Notes under the pieces: generated by a model
What the model was told of the DNA's origin: nothing
Databases searched by the model: none
What the model saw: the letters and a program-made list of their open reading frames with translations, nothing else
Made by a program: the position numbers and the translations under genes
Assembly: GCA_948560265.1 (NCBI GenBank)
Contig: CAOXTD010000009.1
Coordinates: 271-64,270 of the forward strand
Origin: an uncultured Clostridia bacterium
GTDB lineage: Bacteria; Bacillota; Clostridia; TANB77; CAG-508
Reading direction: 5' to 3'
DNA: 64,000 nt
Shown here: positions 4,366 to 55,578 of the stretch, piece by piece
Numbering within the stretch: position 1 is the first letter of the stretch
How the letters are laid out: each line of letters begins with the position of its first letter

Positions 4366-5212
4366 ATGGCAACAATTATTAATGGAAAAGAACTAGCAGC
4401 AAAAGTAAGATTGGAATTAAAAGAAGAAGTAGCAGAATTAAAAAGGAAAGGAATTCAGCCTAAACTAGCAGTTATTATGGTAGGAAATGATAGTGCATCA
4501 GCAGTATATGTGCGTAATAAAAGTAAAGCTTGTGACGAAATAGGAATTGCATTTGAAGAATTTTTATTAAAGGAAGATACAACAAGAGAAGAATTATTAA
4601 ATCTAATTGAAGAATTAAACAATAGAGAGGATGTTCATGGCATTTTATTACAAAGTCCAATTCCAAAACATCTAGATATTAGAGAAGCTTTTAATGCCAT
4701 TAGTTACAAAAAAGATGTTGATGGTTTTCATCCAATTAATGTAGGAAAATTAGCAATAGGAGAAGAGTGTTTTGTTTCATGCACACCAGCAGGTGTTATG
4801 AAAATGTTAGAAGAATATCATATTGAAACACAAGGAAAAAGTGCAGTTGTGATAGGAAGAAGCAATATTGTAGGAAGACCACTTGCACAATTGTTAATAA
4901 ATAGCAATGCAACTGTTACAGTTTGTCATTCCAAAACACAAAATATAGCAGAAATAACAAAGAAGGCAGACATTTTAGTAGCAGCTATTCGGAAAACCAA
5001 AATTTGTGACAGAAAATATGGTAAAAGAAGGAGCAGTTGTTATTGATGTAGGTATTAATAGAAAAGAAGAAGGCAAATTAGTAGGTGATGTAGACTTCGA
5101 AAATGTAGAAAACAAGGTGTCTTACATCACACCAGTACCAGGGGGAGTAGGACCTATGACAATTGCAATGTTAATGAACAATGTGGTTCTAGCAGCTAAA
5201 AAAGAAAACTAA
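4366..5212 (+). CDS. folD: bifunctional methylene-THF dehydrogenase/methenyl-THF cyclohydrolase FolD; frame broken by one extra C at 4990
   Basis: ORFs 4366-5046 and 5006-5212 join after skipping C4990 to give [30 protein letters not shown], a canonical FolD motif. Confidence 0.9.
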
Positions 5213-5248: not shown

Positions 5249-5890
5249 ATGAAAGTCATTTATCAAGCCAAAAAAAATTATCCAGAAAAATTAAAACATA
5301 TTTATGCACCGCCAGCAAAGTTATATTTGTTAGGTGATGAAACAATATTAAATAAGCCATCCATAGCTATCATTGGTTGTAGACAAGCAAGTGATTATGG
5401 CAAAAAGGTGGCTTTTCGTTTTGCCTATGAATTAGCAAAACAAGGAATTGTAGTAATCAGTGGGCTAGCCAGAGGAATAGATACTTATGGACACTTGGGA
5501 GCGGTAAAAGCTAATGGAAAAACGATTGCTGTTTTAGGAAGTGGATTTGCACATATTTATCCAGCAGAGAACAAGGGGGTATGCAGAGAGATTATTCAAA
5601 AAGGTGGAGCGATTGTAACAGAATATTCACCAGAGAGCAAACCAGAAAAAATGCACTTTCCAGCTAGAAATCGATTAATTAGCGGATTATCTAATGGAGT
5701 TCTAGTGGTAGAAGCAAAAGAAAAGAGTGGAACTCTTATAACAGTAGATTATGCACTAGACCAAGGAAAAGAAGTTTTTATCATTCCAGGTAATATTACA
5801 AACCCAAATTCTAATGGAACCAATAGTTTAATTCAACAAGGTGCTAAATTAGTTACAAAAGTAGAAGATATTTTGGTAGAATTACTTTAA
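5249..5890 (+). CDS. dprA: DNA-processing protein DprA/Smf, Rossmann-core-only form
   Basis: SGLARGIDTYGHLGA and FPARNRLISGLS motifs. At 213 aa it lacks the usual N- and C-terminal extensions. Confidence 0.8.
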   Translation: MKVIYQAKKNYPEKLKHIYAPPAKLYLLGDETILNKPSIAIIGCRQASDYGKKVAFRFAYELAKQGIVVISGLARGIDTYGHLGAVKANGKTIAVLGSGFAHIYPAENKGVCREIIQKGGAIVTEYSPESKPEKMHFPARNRLISGLSNGVLVVEAKEKSGTLITVDYALDQGKEVFIIPGNITNPNSNGTNSLIQQGAKLVTKVEDILVELL

Positions 5891-5971
5891 AAATCAAAAA
5901 AAATATGTTATAATAGGTGGCGAATGATAAATTCGGGGAAATAACGGAAGAAGGAAAGGAGATAAAAGGTA

Positions 5972-7375
5972 ATGGCTGACGAAACAACCAAAAAAACATC
6001 AACAGCTAAAAGTAGTGAAAAGAAGATAGCAACAGGAAGTACAAAAAGGATAGTACAAAGTAGAAGCTCCTCTACAGCGGGAAAAAAGAATACTACTAAA
6101 AAAGAAAGCACGACAAAAGCTACTACTAAAGTAGAGAAGAGTGCTCCAAAAACAACTAGAAAGAAAACTACTGTGGAGAATCAAGAAAAAAGTAAGAAAA
6201 CTACTTCCGCTAAAAAAGAAAGTGCACCTAAAAATGAAAAGACAACAAAGAAAACTACTTCTTCTGCTAAAAGTGAAGCTACTAAAAAGAAGACTACAAA
6301 AAAAGTAGAAAAACAAGAAAATATAGAATTAGAAGAAAAAAAGACGAAATCTACCACGCCTAAAAAAGGCAAACATTCTTTGGAACCTGAAGAAATATCT
6401 CAAGTAGAAAAGGCATTAGAAGAGGCAATAGAAGCTGCAAAGCAGGAAATTATAAAAAAGGCTAGAGAAGAAAATAAAATAGAAATTCCTACAATTGAAG
6501 AATTATTGAGAAAAGCAGGAATTACAGAAACAGATAGTTTGACTAATAAAAAAGATATCCCTAAAAGAGAAGAACTTTTATCTTTGGAAGATGATGAGGA
6601 GCTAGAGGCAGATGAGGATTTTGAAGAGATAGAAGAATTCGAAGATAAAGAGGAACTAGATGAAGACGACGATATAGACGAAGAAGAGGATATAGAGGAA
6701 GATTTAGAAGACGAATATTATGATGAAGATGAAGAGTTAGAAGATGAATATTATGATGAAGATGAAGAACTAGAGGACGAATATTACGACGAAGAGGATG
6801 ACGAGGAACTAGAAGACGAAGAAGACTATGAAGATGATGAAGAATTAGAAGAAGAGGAATATGAAGAGCCAACGACACGTCTTACAAAAAGAAGAGAAAG
6901 AGATATTGCAGAAGTTGTCAGAAAAGAAATGCAAAAGAATAAAAAAGTAGCTGATGTAGAACTTGGAAAAATTCATTCAAGAGTTTTTCAAAATATTTGC
7001 TTAGCAATAGTAGTTATGCTATATTTGAATTTTGTTGTTTTAGGATTTGTTAATATTGAAAATTCAGTTTTTGTTACAGACTTGAAAGTGTTTAGTGTTG
7101 CTCTTTTAGTGATTGCAGTTGGAATTTTTGAATATGCCTATAAAAAAGATAGTGGAAGACATACGCTTCATGGAATAGAGATTTTATTACTTGCTTTTAC
7201 AACAATGGGATTAATATATGTTAATTTAATGTGGCAAGGAAAATTTGTATATCTTGTAGCTTTAATTACTTTTATTTTTGCTATCTATTACGTAGCAAAA
7301 TCTATTATTGTTTATAAAAAGATGAAAAAGCAATATTTTATTGATGAGATGAAGAAAGTAATAAAGAGAAGATAG
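5972..7375 (+). CDS. highly charged membrane protein: K/T/S-rich N-terminus, D/E/Y-rich repeat centre, four C-terminal TM helices
   Basis: 467-aa ORF with extreme compositional segments; I recognise no family. Confidence 0.7.
   Translation: MADETTKKTSTAKSSEKKIATGSTKRIVQSRSSSTAGKKNTTKKESTTKATTKVEKSAPKTTRKKTTVENQEKSKKTTSAKKESAPKNEKTTKKTTSSAKSEATKKKTTKKVEKQENIELEEKKTKSTTPKKGKHSLEPEEISQVEKALEEAIEAAKQEIIKKAREENKIEIPTIEELLRKAGITETDSLTNKKDIPKREELLSLEDDEELEADEDFEEIEEFEDKEELDEDDDIDEEEDIEEDLEDEYYDEDEELEDEYYDEDEELEDEYYDEEDDEELEDEEDYEDDEELEEEEYEEPTTRLTKRRERDIAEVVRKEMQKNKKVADVELGKIHSRVFQNICLAIVVMLYLNFVVLGFVNIENSVFVTDLKVFSVALLVIAVGIFEYAYKKDSGRHTLHGIEILLLAFTTMGLIYVNLMWQGKFVYLVALITFIFAIYYVAKSIIVYKKMKKQYFIDEMKKVIKRR
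6704..6802 (+). repeat. 3 x 33-nt in-frame tandem repeat (encodes LEDEYYDEDEE)
   Basis: Units at 6704-6736, 6737-6769 and 6770-6802 are near-identical. Confidence 0.85.
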
Positions 7376-25515: not shown

Positions 25516-25543
25516 TTGACAAAACAAAAATTTGGTATATAAT
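25516..25543 (+). promoter_or_regulatory. sigma-A-like promoter of recN
   Basis: TTGACA-N16-TATAAT. Confidence 0.5.
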
Positions 25544-25552
25544 AGCAATATA

Positions 25553-25566
25553 CAAACAATAATTCG
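25553..25566. promoter_or_regulatory. possible LexA (Cheo-type) box
   Basis: The reverse complement CGAATTATTGTTTG differs from CGAAC-N4-GTTCG at 2 positions. It sits between the -10 and the RBS of recN, an SOS gene. Confidence 0.3.
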
Positions 25567-25583: not shown

Positions 25584-27206
25584 ATGATAACCACTTTACA
25601 TATTGAAAATGTAGGAATAATCAACGATTTGTCCATTAATTTGAATGAGGGCTTTAATGTATTAACAGGTGAAACAGGAGCTGGTAAAACATTAATTATT
25701 GGCTCACTTGCTATTCTAGCAGGAGGTAGATTTTCTAAAGAGATGATACGAAATGGAGAAAACTATTCTTTCATTGAGGCTAATTTTTATTGTCCAAATC
25801 ATGAGCAATCTATAGAAGGAAATATCATTATTTCAAGAGAGATACATAGTAATGGTAGAAGCTCTTGTAAAATTAATGGGCGTTTAGCAACAGTCAACGA
25901 ATTAAAAGAATTAATGTCACAAATTATTGATATTCATGGGCAACATGATAGTCAACTTATTTTAAACCAAGCAAAACATATCACTTACTTAGATAGTTTT
26001 ATAGGAAAAGAACTAGAAAAGGAATTAAACAGCTATCAAGAGAAGTTAAGAGAATACAAGAATTTGAAACAAGAACTAAAAAATACCTATGGAGAAGAAC
26101 AAGAAAAAGAAAGAAGACTTGACTTACTTCGCTATCAAGCAGAAGAAATAGAAAATGCTAAATTAAAACCTACAGAAGAAACAGAATTGGAAGAAAAACA
26201 TAAAATGATGCAAAATGCAGAAAAGTTAAAAGAAAATTTAACACAAATTGATAATGAACTAAATGAAGTTGCAGTAACAGCAATTAGCAATGCTATTCGT
26301 AGTTTAGAAAAAATTCAAGATTGTGGTCAAGAATATGACGAAAAGTTAAGCATTTTAAAAAGCAGTTATTATGATATCCAAGAATTAGCAAGAGATTTTA
26401 GCAGTATGAAAGAAAATATTGACTTTGATGATACTCAAAGAAACAAAATTGAAAGTCGTTTAGACTGTATTTACTCTTTAAAAAGAAAATATGGAAATAC
26501 CATAAAAGAAATACTAGCATATGGAGAAAAGGTAGCAGAAGAAATTCATAAAATTGAAAATTTAGACGAATATCATACTAAAATAAAGAAACAAATAGAA
26601 CAGCTCAAAGAACAAATGCAAGAAATTGCAACTAGAATGAGTAAATTAAGAAAACAATATGCCAAAGTACTATCTGAAAAAGTGAACAATCAACTAAAAG
26701 AATTAGAAATGATAAACGCTAAATTTGAAGTACAAATACTAGAGGAGAATAGCTTTAATGAAAATGGAACAGATAATGTAGAATTTATGATTTGTACCAA
26801 TGTAGGAGAAGGAATGAAACCACTTAGCAAAATTGCATCAGGTGGAGAAATGGCAAGAATCATGCTTGCTATCAAAAATGTTCTAGCAGATGTAGATGAA
26901 GTAGGAACATTAGTGTTTGACGAAATAGATACTGGAATTAGTGGAAAAGCAGGACAAGCAGTAGGAGAAAAGATGAAAGAGATTGCGAAAAACCATCAAG
27001 TCATTTGTATTACGCATTTACCAGCTATTGCAGCAAAAGGAGATTATAATTACTATATTCATAAACAGACAAAAGAAAATAAAACATATACCAATATCAA
27101 ACAACTAAACGAAGAAGAAACTATTGAAGAAATTGCAAGAATTTCTTCAGGAGAAATTACTGAAATTGCAAAAGCACATGCAAAAGAGCTAAGAAAAGCT
27201 AGTTAA
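25584..27206 (+). CDS. recN: DNA repair protein RecN
   Basis: GETGAGKT Walker A, coiled-coil centre, SGGEMARIMLA signature and FDEIDTGISG. Confidence 0.95.
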   Translation: MITTLHIENVGIINDLSINLNEGFNVLTGETGAGKTLIIGSLAILAGGRFSKEMIRNGENYSFIEANFYCPNHEQSIEGNIIISREIHSNGRSSCKINGRLATVNELKELMSQIIDIHGQHDSQLILNQAKHITYLDSFIGKELEKELNSYQEKLREYKNLKQELKNTYGEEQEKERRLDLLRYQAEEIENAKLKPTEETELEEKHKMMQNAEKLKENLTQIDNELNEVAVTAISNAIRSLEKIQDCGQEYDEKLSILKSSYYDIQELARDFSSMKENIDFDDTQRNKIESRLDCIYSLKRKYGNTIKEILAYGEKVAEEIHKIENLDEYHTKIKKQIEQLKEQMQEIATRMSKLRKQYAKVLSEKVNNQLKELEMINAKFEVQILEENSFNENGTDNVEFMICTNVGEGMKPLSKIASGGEMARIMLAIKNVLADVDEVGTLVFDEIDTGISGKAGQAVGEKMKEIAKNHQVICITHLPAIAAKGDYNYYIHKQTKENKTYTNIKQLNEEETIEEIARISSGEITEIAKAHAKELRKAS

Positions 27207-50326: not shown

Positions 50327-52081
50327 ATGGCAGAATTACCAAAAGTACACTTAACCATTGACAATAAAGAGGTAGAAGTTCAAAAAGGAACAACGATTTT
50401 ACAAGCTGCAAGACAAGCAAATATTGATATTCCTACACTTTGTTATTTAAAAGAAATTAACGCCATTGGTGATTGCAGAATGTGTATCACAGAAGTAGAA
50501 GGAAGAAAAGGATTTGCCACTTCTTGTATTCAGCAAGTAGAAGAAGGCATGGTAGTACATACGCATTCGCCAGCAGTAATTGAAGCGAGAAAGATGATAT
50601 TAGACTTGATTTTATCTAATCACCATCGTGATTGTCTAACTTGCACACGAAATGGAAATTGTGAATTACAAGCATTAGCAGTAAAATTCAATGTACAAAG
50701 TGTACGTTATGAAGGGGCTAAGAATGAACACAAAATAGACGATAGTTCACCATCTATTGTACGTGATTTCAATAAATGTATTTTATGTAGAAGATGTGTA
50801 TCAACTTGTAAAAAAGTACAAAAGGTTGGTGCTATTGATGCAGTAAATAGAGGCTTTACCTCTTGTATTTCAACAGTAGGAGACCATAGCTTAAATGATG
50901 TCAATTGTACTTTTTGTGGTCAATGCATTCAAGCATGTCCAACAGGTGCTTTACATGAAAAAGATTCCACTGAAGTAGTATGGGAAAAATTAAGAGACCC
51001 AGAAAGCTATGTCATTGTACAAACGGCACCAGCAGTAAGAGTAGCCTTAGGAGAAGAATTTGGTATGCCAATTGGTACCAATGTGACTGGTAAAATGGTA
51101 GCAGCTCTTCAAAGATTAGGCTTTGATAAAGTATTTGATACTAATACTGGAGCAGACTTTACTATTATGGAAGAAGGAACTGAATTTATCAAGCGTTTGC
51201 AAGTGAATGACCATCTTCCAATGATAACCTCTTGTAGCCCAGGTTGGGTAAGGTATATTGAAATGAATTATCCAGAAAACCTACAACACTTATCCAGCTG
51301 TAAATCTCCACATGAAATGTTTGGAGCACTTTTGAAGACATATTATGCAAGTAAGCAAAAAATAAATCCAGAGAAAATCTTTGTTGTTTCAGTGATGCCT
51401 TGCATTGCTAAAAAGTTTGAAAGACAAAGAGAAGAAATGAAAGATAATGGACTATATGATGTAGATGCAGTGCTAACAACAAGAGAATTGGCAAGAATGA
51501 TTAAACAAGCTAATATTGAATTTGTAGAATTAGAAGATGAAGTTTTTGATGATCCAATGGGAGAAGCAACAGGCGCTGCTGCTATCTTTGGTGTAACAGG
51601 TGGTGTGGCAGAGGCGGCACTAAGAAGTGTATCAGAAATCGTAACAGGAAAGCCATTAGAAAAAATAGAATTTGAAGAAGTAAGAGGACAAAAAGGAATC
51701 AAAAGAGCAACGATAAAAATAGGAGACCAAGAAGTAAAAGCTGTTGTAGCAAGTGGACTAGGCAATGCCAAAACCATTATGGAAGAAATTAAGTCAGGAA
51801 AAGCAGATTATCAGTTTGTAGAAATTATGGCATGCCCTGGTGGATGCATTATGGGTGGAGGACAACCGATTAAGAGTAGTAAAATTAGAGAAACAGTAAA
51901 TGTAGCTCAAAAACGTTCAGAAGCCATGTATAGCATTGATGAAAGAAGTGCTATAAGACTTTCTCATAAAAATCCAGTGTTACAAAAAATCTACAAGGAA
52001 TTTTTAGGAGAGCCAGGTGGACACCTAGCACATGAACTATTACATACACATTATGAAAAAAGAGAAAAATATAGGATTTAA
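50327..52081 (+). CDS. hydA: [FeFe]-hydrogenase catalytic subunit, multi-domain group-A type
   Basis: N-terminal 2Fe-2S and 4Fe-4S domains. H-cluster motifs are MPCIAKKFE and EIMACPGGCIMGGGQP, but motif 1 reads TSCSPGW. Confidence 0.9.
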   Translation: MAELPKVHLTIDNKEVEVQKGTTILQAARQANIDIPTLCYLKEINAIGDCRMCITEVEGRKGFATSCIQQVEEGMVVHTHSPAVIEARKMILDLILSNHHRDCLTCTRNGNCELQALAVKFNVQSVRYEGAKNEHKIDDSSPSIVRDFNKCILCRRCVSTCKKVQKVGAIDAVNRGFTSCISTVGDHSLNDVNCTFCGQCIQACPTGALHEKDSTEVVWEKLRDPESYVIVQTAPAVRVALGEEFGMPIGTNVTGKMVAALQRLGFDKVFDTNTGADFTIMEEGTEFIKRLQVNDHLPMITSCSPGWVRYIEMNYPENLQHLSSCKSPHEMFGALLKTYYASKQKINPEKIFVVSVMPCIAKKFERQREEMKDNGLYDVDAVLTTRELARMIKQANIEFVELEDEVFDDPMGEATGAAAIFGVTGGVAEAALRSVSEIVTGKPLEKIEFEEVRGQKGIKRATIKIGDQEVKAVVASGLGNAKTIMEEIKSGKADYQFVEIMACPGGCIMGGGQPIKSSKIRETVNVAQKRSEAMYSIDERSAIRLSHKNPVLQKIYKEFLGEPGGHLAHELLHTHYEKREKYRI

Positions 52082-52101
52082 AACTGGGAAGGGAGGTTTG
52101 T

Positions 52102-53007
52102 ATGGAAAATTTTAAATCAGGTTTTGTTTCTATTGTAGGAAGAACCAATGTGGGAAAATCTAGTATCTTAAATGATATGGTAGGGCAAAAGGTGGCAAGC
52201 GTAGCAAATAAGCCACAAACTACAAGAACAGCAATTAAAGCAATTGTCAATCGTGAACACTCTCAAATTATTTTTACAGATACACCAGGAATTCATAAGC
52301 CAAAATCAAAATTAGGTGATACTATGGTGGAAACAGCATGGGGAAGTATTCCTGATAGTGATGTAGTACTGTTTGTTGTGGAAGCTACCTCTAACGGAAT
52401 TGGTAAAGGCGACCAAATGATTTTAGATAAAATCAAAGAAGCAAAAGCACAAACCATTTTGGTTATTAATAAAATTGATTTGGTAAGCAAAGAGCAAATT
52501 TTTAAGATGATTGAGGCTTTTAAGGATGAATATCATTTTAAAGCAATTATTCCGATTTCTGCCTTAAAAGAATCTGATGTCGAAGTGATTTTAGAAGAAA
52601 TTGAGAAGAACTTAAAAGAAGGTCCTGCATATTATGATATAGAGGAATATACAGATCAAACTTTAAGAGATTTAGCAGCAGAAACGATACGAGAAAAAGC
52701 ACTAAAACTATTGAAAGATGAAGTGCCACATGGTATATTAATTGAAATAGAGAAAATGAAAAAGGGTAAAACAAGAGAAGAAAAGCCAATATTTAATATA
52801 GAAGCAACCATTTACTGCTTAAGAGAGTCCCACAAGGGAATTATCATTGGTAAAGGTGGAGCGATGCTGAAAAAGATTGGAACATATGCAAGAGAAGATT
52901 TAGAAAAAATGCTAGAAACACAAGTGAATTTGAAATTGTGGGTAAAAGTAAAAGAAGATTGGATTAATGATGAACATTTTGTGAAATTGTTTAAAAATAC
53001 AGATTGA
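52102..53007 (+). CDS. era: GTPase Era
   Basis: GRTNVGKSS, DTPG, NKID and a KH domain. Confidence 0.95.
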   Translation: MENFKSGFVSIVGRTNVGKSSILNDMVGQKVASVANKPQTTRTAIKAIVNREHSQIIFTDTPGIHKPKSKLGDTMVETAWGSIPDSDVVLFVVEATSNGIGKGDQMILDKIKEAKAQTILVINKIDLVSKEQIFKMIEAFKDEYHFKAIIPISALKESDVEVILEEIEKNLKEGPAYYDIEEYTDQTLRDLAAETIREKALKLLKDEVPHGILIEIEKMKKGKTREEKPIFNIEATIYCLRESHKGIIIGKGGAMLKKIGTYAREDLEKMLETQVNLKLWVKVKEDWINDEHFVKLFKNTD

Positions 53008-53033
53008 AAACTTAAACAAATGTTTTGGAAGCT

Positions 53034-53062
53034 ATTGACATAAATAAATATTAACGTTACAA
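53034..53062 (+). promoter_or_regulatory. sigma-A-like promoter for the small hydrophobic ORF
   Basis: TTGACA-N17-TACAAT. Confidence 0.55.
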
Positions 53063-53133
53063 TTGAAAATGAGGTTAGGAAAAGCAGAGTGTGGTTGCCA
53101 TCTCAACTTACATATGAAAGTGAGGTGGTGCAT

Positions 53134-53319
53134 ATGGTAGATATATTATTACAATTAATCATTTTACTTTTTTCTGCTCTAGTAGCAGTATCTATTATAG
53201 CATTTGCCTTGATTATAGCTTTAGTTATAATCAAGGCAAATAAAAACAATACACATCTCTGCCCGCTAGTAGAAGATGTGTATACATTCTCTATGGCAAC
53301 CACATTTTGTGGCTCCTAA
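53134..53319 (+). CDS. 61-aa hydrophobic peptide, candidate type I toxin
   Basis: GAGGTGG lies 6 nt before the ATG. In MVDILLQLIILLFSALVAVSIIAFALIIALVIIKANKNN... one clean TM helix is followed by a basic/polar tail. Confidence 0.5.
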   Translation: MVDILLQLIILLFSALVAVSIIAFALIIALVIIKANKNNTHLCPLVEDVYTFSMATTFCGS

Positions 53320-53324
53320 CTTCT
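53238..53324 (-). ncRNA. candidate cis-antisense RNA (antitoxin) overlapping the 3' end of ORF 53134-53319
   Basis: Bounded by a consensus minus-strand promoter (53331-53358) and a minus-strand hairpin ACACATCT/AGATGTGT followed by AUUGUUUUUAUUU. Confidence 0.4.
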
Positions 53325-53330
53325 ACTAAT

Positions 53331-53358
53331 ATTATAACATAAAATAATGCAATGTCAA
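53331..53358 (-). promoter_or_regulatory. consensus sigma-A promoter firing antisense into the small ORF
   Basis: The minus strand reads TTGACA-N16-TATAAT with an extended -10 TGT. Confidence 0.55.
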
Positions 53359-53453
53359 GAATTCAAAAAATTTCCAATATTAAAATCGAATAAAAAATGG
53401 AAAAAAGACCATCATAAATACAGAAGCATAAATAAAGAGGAGTTGAGGCACAT

Positions 53454-53615
53454 ATGATACAAAAACAGATGAAAGACTTAGCATGGAATACATTTAAACA
53501 AACTGGAGACATCAATACTTTTATGGAATTATTGCAAGTAGAAAATATGCAAAAAAATGGAATGTTTGAACCACAAGAAAATGCACAAGGAATTGAAAAA
53601 CAAATTAAGGACTAA
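53454..53615 (+). CDS. yqzL: YqzL-family small protein (not in the ORF track; 53 aa)
   Basis: Sequence MIQKQMKDLAWNTFKQTGDINTFMELLQVE...; sits between era and recO, as yqzL does in Bacillus. Confidence 0.7.
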   Translation: MIQKQMKDLAWNTFKQTGDINTFMELLQVENMQKNGMFEPQENAQGIEKQIKD

Positions 53616-53632
53616 AATAGAGGACTAACAAT

Positions 53633-54358
53633 ATGGGAATTATCAAAACAAAAGGAATTATTCTTTCAGAAAGTAATATGAATGATTTTGACAAGATGTT
53701 AACAATACTTACTCCCAATGGGAAAATAGGGTGTGCTGCAAAAGGGGCTAGAAAACCAAAAAGCCTCTTAATGGCAGGCACTCAATTTTTGTGTTTTGGT
53801 GAATATATGCTTTATCAAGGGACAAGCAGTTATCACATCAATTCTTGTGACACTATTGAACTTTTTTATCCTATTCGAACAGACTTAGATAAGTTAAAAT
53901 ATGCAGCACATGTTACTAAAATTATTAATGATGTAACAGATGAAAACCAAAATACATATCGCATTTTACAACTTTTTTTAAATACTTTATACATGATATC
54001 AGAAACAGATAAAGACTTAGACTTTATCCTTTCTGTATTTAAGTTAAGACTACTATGCTTATTAGGCTTTACTCCACAAATCAAAACTTGTACAAATTGT
54101 AAAACACAAGATAATATCACCCATTTCAGTATTAGAGACAATGGGTTTAAATGCGAGGCTTGTAGCAAGGTAGATAAAGGAGCAATTAAAATATCAGATT
54201 CTACGAAAACGGCTATGCAATACATTGTATTAGCAGATCCTAAAAAGATATTTTCCTTCCAAATTTCAGAGGAAAACTTGCAAGAGTTGAACTTGGTGAG
54301 TAATCTCTATTTTAATGAAAAGTTGGAAAAAGAATATAAGTTGGAAAACTTATTTTAA
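53633..54358 (+). CDS. recO: DNA repair protein RecO
   Basis: OB-fold N-terminus plus a Cys4 zinc motif CTNC...CEAC. Confidence 0.92.
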   Translation: MGIIKTKGIILSESNMNDFDKMLTILTPNGKIGCAAKGARKPKSLLMAGTQFLCFGEYMLYQGTSSYHINSCDTIELFYPIRTDLDKLKYAAHVTKIINDVTDENQNTYRILQLFLNTLYMISETDKDLDFILSVFKLRLLCLLGFTPQIKTCTNCKTQDNITHFSIRDNGFKCEACSKVDKGAIKISDSTKTAMQYIVLADPKKIFSFQISEENLQELNLVSNLYFNEKLEKEYKLENLF

Positions 54359-54378
54359 TTTAAAAACAATAAAAAGCA

Positions 54379-55578
54379 CTATGATAAGTGCTTTTGTTTT
54401 TGACAATTTACAGCCTTGCTAGCAGGACCTTCAACTATATGAAAATCTTTGCCGTTTAAAATATGCTCAAACAAAGAGTAAAGATTATTGGCAGCAACTT
54501 CTGCAGACCAATCTTGGGTAATAGTTTGATAAGCGTTTTTAGACAAAGTATTCCTCAAGTCTTTATTGTTAATAGCAAGTTTTACATTATTTTCTAATTC
54601 TAAATAGGAAGAGTATATTAAACCATTTTCTTTATGTTTAATTAAAAATGGTACTGAACCCATTTTTTGATTAGCAATGATAGTACAGCCTGCGTTCATT
54701 GCTTCATTTACAACAACGCCCCAACCTTCACGACTATCACTTGTACCAATAAAAATATTGGCATTTTCCATATAAGTATGAACTTTATCACTTGGTACTT
54801 GTCCTACAATTTCGATAACATCTTCTAAATTTTCCTTTTTTACCCTTTGACGCATCTTATCTTCTAACATTCCTGTACCTAACATTTTGATATGAAAAGA
54901 ATAATCCTGCTTTTTTAGGTTCCTAGCTAGTTTTAGAACAATCTCAGGGTGTTTCCAATGGATAAATCTAGCAACCCATACAATTTCAATCTTTTTCTTT
55001 TCTTCTTTCTTTTGCAATAACTGCTCTATATCATAATGAGTCGTTTCCAAAAAATACCCCCATTTATATATTTTATTGGGATACAAACCAAAGAAATTGA
55101 AGTCATTTGCGCCATAACCATTACAAGTTAGTAAATATAAGTTTTTATTCTTTCTATAGCGAATATGTCTGTTATAAAATAATTTCATTTTCTCTTTATC
55201 AAAAATTGTTTTAAAAAATCCATCAGGAAAAATGAAAATTCTTGCACGATAACGGAAAGTAATTTTATCTTGTTCTAATCTTTCTTCTATCAATTCATCT
55301 GTAGTTGAACCAATGATAACAATATCACTTTCTAAAGCTAATTTTTTAGCTTCTTCATAACTTTCGTCATTTTCATAGGCTCTTATTACAAAATCATATT
55401 CTTGGTCTAAATCTTTAAAACCTAAATCCAAACGCCACTGAAATATTTTCATGGTAGACACAAATTTAAAATCAGAACCTAATTTCTTTTGCATTTCCAA
55501 ACAAAATGGGACTTGATGATGTGTTAAAAAATTCGAAATAAATGTTATCTTCATAGAATTTTCATTCCTTTCCATCAA
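54379..55578 (-). CDS. GT4-family glycosyltransferase
   Basis: C-terminal EGWGVVVNEAMNAGC (E-x7-E region). Confidence 0.85.
   Translation of the reverse strand: MMERNENSMKITFISNFLTHHQVPFCLEMQKKLGSDFKFVSTMKIFQWRLDLGFKDLDQEYDFVIRAYENDESYEEAKKLALESDIVIIGSTTDELIEERLEQDKITFRYRARIFIFPDGFFKTIFDKEKMKLFYNRHIRYRKNKNLYLLTCNGYGANDFNFFGLYPNKIYKWGYFLETTHYDIEQLLQKKEEKKKIEIVWVARFIHWKHPEIVLKLARNLKKQDYSFHIKMLGTGMLEDKMRQRVKKENLEDVIEIVGQVPSDKVHTYMENANIFIGTSDSREGWGVVVNEAMNAGCTIIANQKMGSVPFLIKHKENGLIYSSYLELENNVKLAINNKDLRNTLSKNAYQTITQDWSAEVAANNLYSLFEHILNGKDFHIVEGPASKAVNCQKQKHLS

Follow-up and report, generated by a model that had tools for sequence, protein, structure and literature searches.

Between era and yqzL/recO, a 64,000 nucleotide (nt) stretch of DNA from an uncultured Clostridia bacterium (contig CAOXTD010000009.1, positions 271 to 64,270; the whole stretch is referred to here as the window) carries a cassette of ~350 bp, which is likely to be one copy of an unannotated, chromosomal family of type I toxin-antitoxin (TA)-like elements of uncultured, AT-rich gut Clostridia, with relatives including Clostridium sp. 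CAG:508. An earlier reading of this DNA (the original prediction) had proposed a small hydrophobic toxin gene with a convergent cis-antisense RNA, and comparison with homologues supports this in silico, making a module of peptide and cis-antisense RNA quite probable. All of the window features recur at the same relative positions across about 110 related loci, and are thus not the product of chance. Missing from the original prediction were a LexA-type box ahead of the toxin promoter and a link to DNA-repair genes, and the family is probably a new, SOS-controlled variant of type I TA, acting as a leader ahead of such genes.

Organisation and distribution of the cassette

The cassette follows era (52102-53007, plus strand) and precedes the genes for a YqzL-like protein (53454-53615) and RecO (53633-54358), with its parts in an order that is fixed across the family: LexA-type box, promoter, 5' arm, anti-Shine-Dalgarno (anti-SD)/Shine-Dalgarno (SD) hairpin, open reading frame (ORF), minus-only terminator, 3' arm, and convergent promoter. 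On the plus strand of the window, the LexA-type (Cheo-like) box AAACAAATGTTT (53014-53025) lies 9 nt 5' of the -35 hexamer of the toxin promoter, TTGACA-17-TACAAT, an 11/12 match which spans 53035-53063, one base beyond where it had originally been placed, with transcription predicted to start at ~53070. The 5' untranslated region (UTR) of ~64 nt (~53070-53133) is as had been proposed, and contains the 5' arm of a long-range helix (GAGGUUAGGA, AAA, GCAGAGUGUGGUUGCCAU; 53071-53101), overlapped by a hairpin (53098-53128) in which the anti-SD CCAUCUCA (53098-53105) faces the SD UGAGGUGG (53121-53128). The ORF behind this SD, likewise foreseen together with its good ribosome-binding site, starts with ATG and here encodes 61 residues (53134-53319, plus strand; product MVDILLQLIILLFSALVAVSIIAFALIIALVIIKANKNNTHLCPLVEDVYTFSMATTFCGS), with residues 3-33 forming an uninterrupted hydrophobic stretch. 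A 76-residue, GTG-started frame (53089-53319; P0001 in public data) was rejected, its upstream in-frame part being unconserved and carrying a stop in L002, and is also disfavoured by the position of the SD ahead of the ATG at 53134.

Within the ORF lies a plus-strand hairpin (53202-53241) with arms of 19 nt (53202-53220 and 53223-53241), a perfected quasi-palindrome. On the minus strand, a promoter (TTGACA-16-TGnTATAAT; 53331-53358), with a 12/12 match and an extended -10, and an intrinsic terminator (53238-53283; stem 53283-53274/53258-53249, followed by the U-tract UUGUUUUUAUUU), both correctly recognised in the original prediction, bound a predicted antisense (antitoxin) RNA of ~85 nt with two stem-loops (53238-53324). 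The 3' arm of the long-range helix (53293-53323, plus strand) is, on the minus strand, the 5' stem-loop of this antisense RNA. The two cassette promoters are the top two sigma-70-type matches in 51500-55000, a region in which the total count of promoter-like sites is not above that of shuffles. Between the era stop codon and the cassette (53008-53013) the sequence holds no terminator, and between the cassette and yqzL (53359-53453) no promoter-like site, so that expression of yqzL-recO probably depends on transcription crossing the cassette.

A peptide search with the 61-residue product matched only short hydrophobic proteins of 36-37 residues (e.g. MIENILLQLIFLLFSALVAVSIIAFALIIALVIIMSK) and gave loci L001-L003, with their parts in the order seen in the window (promoter, 5' UTR ...GGAAAAGCAGAGUGUGGUUGCCA, SD GGAGGUGGUG, short ORF, hairpin, GGCAACCACAUUUUGUGGCUCC, and convergent promoter). 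Scanning for the 3'-arm pattern yielded 9 genome loci, 74 metagenome stretches, and 89 further genome stretches, with a hidden Markov model (HMM) of the whole element confirming 112 loci in total; a genome scan with a 5'-arm...SD pattern returned nearly all noise, with L132 the single real locus. The hosts of the confirmed genome matches are all uncultured Clostridia or 'Clostridium sp.' metagenome-assembled genomes (MAGs) of gut origin (human, mouse, rabbit, chicken, deer, and goat), and three MAGs carry two or three copies each. The window itself has a GC content of 31%, and its RecN is 98% identical to that of two Clostridia MAGs and 78% identical to that of Clostridium sp. CAG:508.

A profile built from 18 peptides found 377 homologous protein clusters (E <= 0.001), none of which has a functional name. 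Scans of both the 61-residue and the canonical peptides (see below) against Pfam, NCBIfam, and PADLOC gave nothing meaningful, and Rfam applied to the whole window returned the glmS ribozyme alone at gathering score, outside the cassette locus, with E-value mode over 52950-53450 yielding only sub-threshold hairpin look-alikes. Judged by these model searches, the family belongs to no named toxin or RNA family. Phage, plasmid, and viral collections held no copy, by DNA or by protein. A single viral-contig match to the 3'-arm pattern was set aside as chance, lying in DNA of 57% GC and having no HMM match.

Peptide conservation, RNA structure, and loss of the toxin start

The family peptide comprises 34-46 residues in a single uninterrupted hydrophobic helix, with the consensus MIExxLLQLIxLLFxALVxxTIIAFALIIxLVxILSK. 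The invariant ORF columns of a 22-member alignment are T at codon position 2; among 14 distinct ORFs of 37 residues, T occupies this position in 65% of codons 2-34, and pairwise differences are distributed 33/23/44% over codon positions 1/2/3. The homologue comparison suggested alongside the original prediction finds the ORF conserved as a hydrophobic peptide.

In the closest relatives of the window the canonical peptide has 36 residues and ends ...IISK*, with ...SK the canonical C-terminus. The window differs from these relatives through the loss of one base near 53235-53237 and one substitution, which convert ATT ATT AGC AAA TAA (IISK*) to ATC AAG GCA AAT AAA (IKANK...), leaving the old stop TAA (53244-53246) out of frame and the ORF open as far as 53319, across the 3' arm as well as the terminator hairpin. 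The resulting product keeps the whole transmembrane helix and gains an unconserved tail of 28 residues. The KANKNN motif and polar tail, which the original prediction took as part of the toxin layout, are therefore the product of a 1-nt deletion allele rather than a family trait, and the TxpA-like size noted with them is accidental. In L229/P0002 the added tail is shifted by one more frameshift, which argues that it is not under protein-level selection.

The same deletion turns an interrupted hairpin into a perfect one. Across the family this hairpin is kept with an internal loop and with compensatory changes, and between the window and L229 a synonymous compensatory change between A-U and G-C (UUG/AUC vs UUA/AUU) retains both the hairpin and the amino acids. 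A comparable 'KANK' frameshift of independent origin occurs in P0084/L231 (...AKIKANKNTISLL...), of the HDIG/ruvAB subfamily, with the P0084 allele found on at least 24 contigs, so that the frameshift with perfected hairpin has at least two separate origins, one in the window subfamily and one in the HDIG/ruvAB subfamily. We infer a template-switch correction of a quasi-palindrome, which may serve as a mutational hotspot or a switch.

The 12-bp complementarity between the 5' UTR and the 3' end of the ORF (18 bp with G-U pairs) described in the original prediction is real, with its size understated: 53084-53101 pairs with 53293-53310 (18 bp), and 53071-53080 with 53314-53323 (10 bp), to give ~28 bp with four G·U pairs in all. 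The plus-strand RNA (53070-53345; 276 nt) folds at -105.3 kcal/mol, compared with -56 ± 4.8 kcal/mol for shuffles (z = -10.3), and the predicted antisense RNA (89 nt as folded) forms two stem-loops at -26.7 kcal/mol (z = -3.5). All 27 distinct members tested are predicted to form the 5'-3' duplex (-34 to -47 kcal/mol), which in 26 of these is stronger on the plus strand than its minus-strand equivalent. The likeness to a hok-type fold-back drawn at the outset is borne out by the way in which the pairing is kept through G·U and compensatory changes, with variation of the 5' arm restricted to A<->G opposite U. The arms form a series, GGUUGCC/GGCAACC (38 members), GGUUGCC/GGUAACC (4 members, G·U), and GGUUACC/GGUAACC (2 or more members, A-U), which as read from these sequences is the usual compensatory path from G-C through G·U to A-U. 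The outer helix differs by subfamily yet still pairs, as UUAGGA/UCCUAA, AUAAGGA/UCCUUAU, GCGAGGAG/CUCCUUGC, or GGUAAUCGG/CCGAUUACC. In an alignment of 22 sequences (A2), 94.4% of cells are paired, whereas slid controls reach 34-55%. Both partners have changed in twelve of the pairs, and the observed covariation score is reached by 0/500 shuffles.

The anti-SD CCAUCUCA has its first two C's in common with the 5' arm, and the anti-SD/SD helix is longer on both sides in window-type than in L002-type members. Partition-function folds of the window RNA give the SD an unpaired probability of 0.13 at full length and 0.01 with the 3' arm blocked; over the family the mean falls from 0.23 to 0.07 when the 3' arm is unavailable, with a decrease in 20 of 21 members and no change in the other. 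In these folds, the tighter pairing of the SD comes about through release of the 5' arm, which is then available to extend the anti-SD helix.

As had been pointed out, the antisense RNA matches the 5' arm in sequence; it is also perfectly complementary to the 3' arm, to the spacer, and to the terminator. Its overlap with the ORF, put at the last ~20 codons in the original prediction, amounts to about 25 codons and is confined to the window allele, with the antisense RNA of canonical members covering essentially the 3' UTR only. The terminator stem shows compensatory changes at 5/7 pairs, and a U-run of at least 6 of 9 follows it on the minus strand in 22/22 members and on the plus strand in 3/22, so that the hairpin would end the antisense RNA and let the plus transcript pass. 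The toxin promoter reads TTGAC[AT]-17-TA[TC]AAT in ~28 of 31 distinct members and the antisense promoter TTGAC[AT]-16/17-TATAAT in all 31, with TTGAC[AT]-16/17/18-TA[TC]AAT describing the promoters of essentially all members. Both RNAs also carry near their 5' ends an SD-like AGGAG/AAGGA, 7-8 nt ahead of AUG/GUG-UGG-UUG-CC (window 53300-53321, minus strand, and 53077-53100, plus strand), giving mini-ORFs of MWLP* on the window antisense RNA and, in many members, MWLPPT* within the 5' UTR; these could follow from the inverted repeat, or mark a stand-by or decoy ribosome site.

Loss of the toxin start is common. Among ~90 distinct non-truncated copies, 24 have no SD, start codon, or N-terminal half of the ORF, although their promoters, 3' part, and antisense region survive; at least 4 independent deletions account for these losses. 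Internal-deletion alleles, with ~19 codons removed, are present in L137, L140, L149, L158, L172, L186, L188, and L189, and in L005, L152, and L175, where the deletions are independent; one of the deletion alleles arose between two ATGTG repeats (microhomology) and is seen next to four different left flanks. A premature TAG is present in L204 and L144. In L132 (7700-7950) the ORF is cut to four codons (MEKK*), with the arms co-varying (GGUAAUCGG/CCGAUUACC and GUGUGGUUGCC/GGCAACCGCAC) and the convergent promoter intact, and this copy may be an RNA-only derivative. Repeated loss of the toxin start with the antisense region retained reads as a sign that the peptide is costly.

The site of the cassette also varies between close relatives. 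In L001, L012, and L229 it lies between a hydrogenase gene and era, in contrast to its position between era and yqzL in the window, and each arrangement has its empty counterpart, in a 20-nt hydrogenase-era spacer in the window (52082-52101) and a 38-nt era-yqzL spacer in L012; the latter bears out the earlier claim that the cassette interrupts era-yqzL-recO. The box and promoter move along with the cassette, and no target-site duplications were seen at the two insertion sites compared. A 628-nt metagenome contig (L230) has the 3' end of era as its left flank, as in the window, and the region upstream of era as its right flank, as in L001 and L012, and is either an assembly chimera or from a genome in which era is flanked by a cassette on each side.

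The LexA-type box and neighbouring repair genes

All subfamilies carry the motif AAACAAAWRTTT 7-10 nt upstream of the toxin -35, and the window box is one base off the clostridial LexA consensus, GAACnnnnGTTT or GAACnnnnGTTT/C (PMC4234289). The sole other exact match in the window falls in the spacer of the recN promoter (TTGACA-AAACAAAAATTTGGTA-TATAAT, 25517-25544), with the promoter region of recN (25517-25560; gene 25584-27206) holding the box AAACAAAAATTT between the -35 and -10 and CAAACAATAATTCG just after the -10. The recN boxes are kept in ~18/19 related genomes, and distant recN promoters read AAACAAATGTTTG and AAACAAATGTTCG, the latter being identical to the window toxin box; the SOS operator of this clade is likely to be RAAC-N4-RTTY. 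A position weight matrix derived from recN gives a score beyond the 99th percentile of background in 26 of 30 distinct cassettes, with the box in every case 7-10 nt 5' of the -35. The window has no canonical GAACnnnnGTTY site, and the degenerate 12-mer is not enriched by count, with the significance of the box resting on its position and conservation rather than its frequency. A search of the fetched loci for lexA, recA, and uvrB returned only a prophage CI-like S24 repressor (L144) and the uvrB of an unrelated, GC-richer Clostridia MAG (L041), neither of which is usable for calibrating the box. We place LexA control of the cassette at about even chances.

The cassette is nearly always packed between co-oriented genes, with the antisense -35 lying 7-30 nt from the next start codon. 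The genes downstream are an HDIG-like gene followed by ruvA-ruvB at at least 27 loci, pcrA at 11, radA and an sbcD-like gene at 8 each, ruvA directly at 7, recD2 at 4, recG and ogg at 3 each, a clpC-like gene at 2, and an sbcC-like gene, holB, and yqzL-recO (the window) at one each, with era-yqzL-recO at an uncounted number of loci, and unrelated genes or none at a few. The four sets of loci found through the peptide only lie at ruvAB, at sbcCD-like genes, at recG, and in one non-repair context. As a qualitative pattern, the adjacency to repair genes is strong in these sequences. L239-L242 have no co-oriented downstream gene, with rpsI convergent to the cassette. In L166, a cassette-type box and promoter (4940-5105) drive an HDIG-ruvA operon without the toxin and antisense part, homology to the left end of the cassette stopping at about the transcription start, and a box-less cassette lies one gene further on, between the HDIG gene and ruvA (5660-6010).

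Proposed mechanism, alternatives, and related systems

In the mechanism that we propose, a sigma-A-type, near-consensus promoter preceded by the LexA-type box would drive an mRNA of ~255 nt encoding the single-helix hydrophobic peptide, with the first 31 nt of this mRNA pairing with its last 31 nt, and the SD held in the neighbouring anti-SD hairpin. The convergent promoter and minus-only terminator would define the ~85-nt antisense RNA, a full complement of the mRNA 3' end, 3' arm included. This RNA, made constitutively, would pair with the mRNA 3' end and displace the 5' arm, which when freed would lengthen the anti-SD helix and tighten the block on translation, as in BsrG/SR4, and the mRNA-antisense duplex would offer a target for RNase III-type decay. 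DNA damage, through cleavage of LexA, would raise toxin transcription above the level of the antisense RNA, allowing the peptide to insert in the membrane and arrest growth or division. Since the hairpin is no terminator for the plus strand, the toxin transcript would continue into the repair genes that follow, in this case yqzL-recO. Placement ahead of repair operons suggests a direct coupling of growth arrest to the induction of repair genes, however we regard functional coupling of this kind as tentative and somewhat doubtful. An extended version, in which the cassette is a movable SOS module with a LexA promoter driving both the arrest peptide and the repair gene by read-through, antisense and convergent transcription setting the damage threshold, the 28-bp stalk acting as an RNase III site that excises the toxin mRNA, and the quasi-palindrome switching between short and long peptides, is rather unlikely.

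A number of observations weigh against the proposed reading as a whole. The evidence is in silico for every member of the family. The box lies upstream of the -35 and not over the core promoter as in recN, so that repression of the toxin by LexA is not assured, and with no terminator between era and the cassette, read-through from era could transcribe the toxin whatever LexA does. The peptide matches no known toxin family in Pfam, NCBIfam, or PADLOC, and its canonical ...SK ending has no charged or bulky C-terminal cluster of the type found in many type I toxins. The antisense RNA, being identical in sequence to the 5' arm, would be expected to open the fold-back rather than to cover the ribosome-binding site, and its effect could be an activating one. 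Finally, most loci were found with search patterns that already specified the 18-nt core of the 3' arm, so that the invariance of this core is partly built in. The loci free of this pattern bias are the peptide-derived L001-L003 and L231-L245, which have the same helices as the pattern-found loci, and a 22-mer of the 3'-arm core is identical in L001-L003, which were found through the peptide alone.

Among the alternative explanations, decay of the window copy is possible, if somewhat unlikely: the 1-nt deletion that moves the stop codon, the further frameshift by which the tail differs in L229/P0002, and the frequency of toxin inactivation in the family would all be expected of a remnant with an inactive 61-residue product and of a window genome with no working TA pair. 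Such decay is harder to reconcile with the intact transmembrane segment, SD, promoters, and RNA helices, or with a synonymous compensatory change that preserves both the hairpin and the codons, and the spread of a like frameshift allele in the P0084 subfamily suggests that the allele may be tolerated or switchable. We think it improbable that the peptide is instead the SOS checkpoint effector of this clade, blocking division with an antisense RNA that sets the induction threshold, rather than a selfish toxin. Caulobacter SidA, B. subtilis YneA, and S. aureus SosA are damage-induced small membrane proteins of the SOS regulon, and the LexA-type box ahead of the promoter, the co-orientation of the cassette with repair operons, and the single-helix hydrophobic peptide of 34-46 residues would suit a protein of this kind. 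However, none of the three is known to us to have a cis-antisense RNA, to be multi-copy, or to be site-variable, whereas the cassette occurs in up to 3 copies per MAG, at different sites, and at positions that are polymorphic between close relatives. About a quarter of its copies have no peptide start, which better fits a dispensable or costly gene, and the peptide has no sequence similarity to SidA, YneA, SosA, or other known division inhibitors.

Less probable again is a cassette that is mainly a cis-regulatory leader or insulator controlling read-through into yqzL-recO, by way of a promoter, a partial terminator, convergent-promoter interference, and an RNase III-type stalk, with the ORF a leader peptide or incidental. 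The close packing of the antisense -35 against the co-oriented gene in most loci, which leaves no space for another promoter, the failure of the hairpin to terminate the plus strand, the retention of both promoters and the 3' part by toxin-deleted copies, and the toxin-less box and promoter ahead of HDIG-ruvA in L166 would agree with such a role. Conservation of the peptide at the amino-acid level over divergent subfamilies, behind a strong SD, does not, nor does the presence of copies facing a convergent rpsI (L239-L242), and sequestration of the SD together with a dedicated antisense RNA are hallmarks of toxin control rather than of an attenuator. A non-coding, miniature inverted-repeat mobile element, with terminal repeats that explain the fold-back and an ORF arising by chance, is very improbable. 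The cassette does have imperfect terminal inverted repeats of ~75 nt, both promoters included, and occupies different sites in close relatives, however the differences between the arms preserve pairing in the plus-strand RNA only, the codon-position pattern and conserved peptide indicate coding, no target-site duplication was seen, and no copies were found in the phage, plasmid, and viral collections.

Taken as a type I TA-like cassette, the element most resembles in layout the B. subtilis pairs txpA/RatA and bsrG/SR4, which share with it convergent, 3'-overlapping RNAs, a small hydrophobic toxin, and a sequestered SD, with the likeness to SR4 extending to the predicted tightening of the SD helix upon binding at the 3' end. 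A 3'-overlapping antisense RNA is the general rule for Gram-positive type I families (PMC8594479). In contrast to these pairs, the cassette is not in a prophage, its canonical antisense RNA covers the 3' UTR and not the ORF, and it has both a 28-bp 5'-3' closure and a LexA-type box; the Rfam BsrG model scores 11.2 bits against a cut-off of 55, with no Pfam or NCBIfam match. Long-distance 5'-3' closure of the mRNA with sequestration of the SD is shared with hok/sok (E. coli, plasmid R1) and aapA1/IsoA1 (H. pylori), though as a likeness of mechanism alone. The antitoxins of hok/sok and aapA1/IsoA1 act at the 5' initiation region, and activation there needs 3' trimming, whereas the cassette antisense RNA complements the 3' arm. 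The cassette has no Hok model match and no sequence similarity to hok/sok or aapA1/IsoA1, and its upstream GTG ORF is unconserved (ATG TAG in L002), so that there is no mok-like leader. Similarly, there is no Fst model match. In Fst/RNAII (par) the two RNAs interact through complementary 5' repeats outside the terminator that they share, whereas the cassette antisense RNA matches the mRNA 5' arm at its 5' end in the same sense, not as a complement. Competition for the 3' arm between the antisense RNA and the mRNA's own 5' end would be a testable variant of antisense control.

The E. coli systems tisB/istR-1 and dinQ/agrB have a LexA operator at the toxin promoter, where the cassette has its candidate LexA-type box, and are alike in a constitutive-looking antitoxin promoter and a small single-helix peptide (29 residues in TisB); LexA control is documented for tisB (PMC11951105). 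Their antitoxin genes, however, are placed divergently ahead of the toxin without overlapping it, and the RNAs target the 5' UTR in trans (PMC8594479), whereas the cassette antisense RNA is convergent and 3'-overlapping; these systems are also Gram-negative and are not repair-operon leaders, and the cassette box is 5' of the -35. Leadership of a dozen different repair operons, as the cassette appears to have, is an arrangement undescribed for tisB or dinQ. Were the SOS link true, we would know of no earlier LexA-linked type I system from a Gram-positive lineage. Two reviews make no mention of such a system in Gram-positives (PMC6563280, PMC11951105), an absence of mention which is not proof.

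Among Clostridia, the type I modules of C. difficile (CD2517.1/RCd8 and others) consist of convergent, overlapping genes with toxins of 34-59 residues bearing an N-terminal transmembrane helix (PMC6563280). The cassette is similar in its Clostridia host, convergent overlap, and small transmembrane peptide. By their descriptions, the C. difficile modules are set apart by Lys-rich toxin C-termini, Sigma-B promoters, and locations in prophages or next to CRISPR arrays, compared with the ...SK ending, sigma-A-type promoters with a LexA-type box, and housekeeping or repair flanks of the cassette. To our knowledge, type I systems of Clostridia are known experimentally only from C. difficile prophages. 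The family described here would add at least 377 unnamed protein clusters, spread through gut Clostridia of humans, mice, rabbits, chickens, and ruminants, and offers a covariance-ready RNA and a peptide signature for genome annotation.

Elsewhere in the window, the minus strand at 31867-32025 carries the glmS ribozyme/riboswitch (Rfam RF00234), with a score of 91.6 bits.

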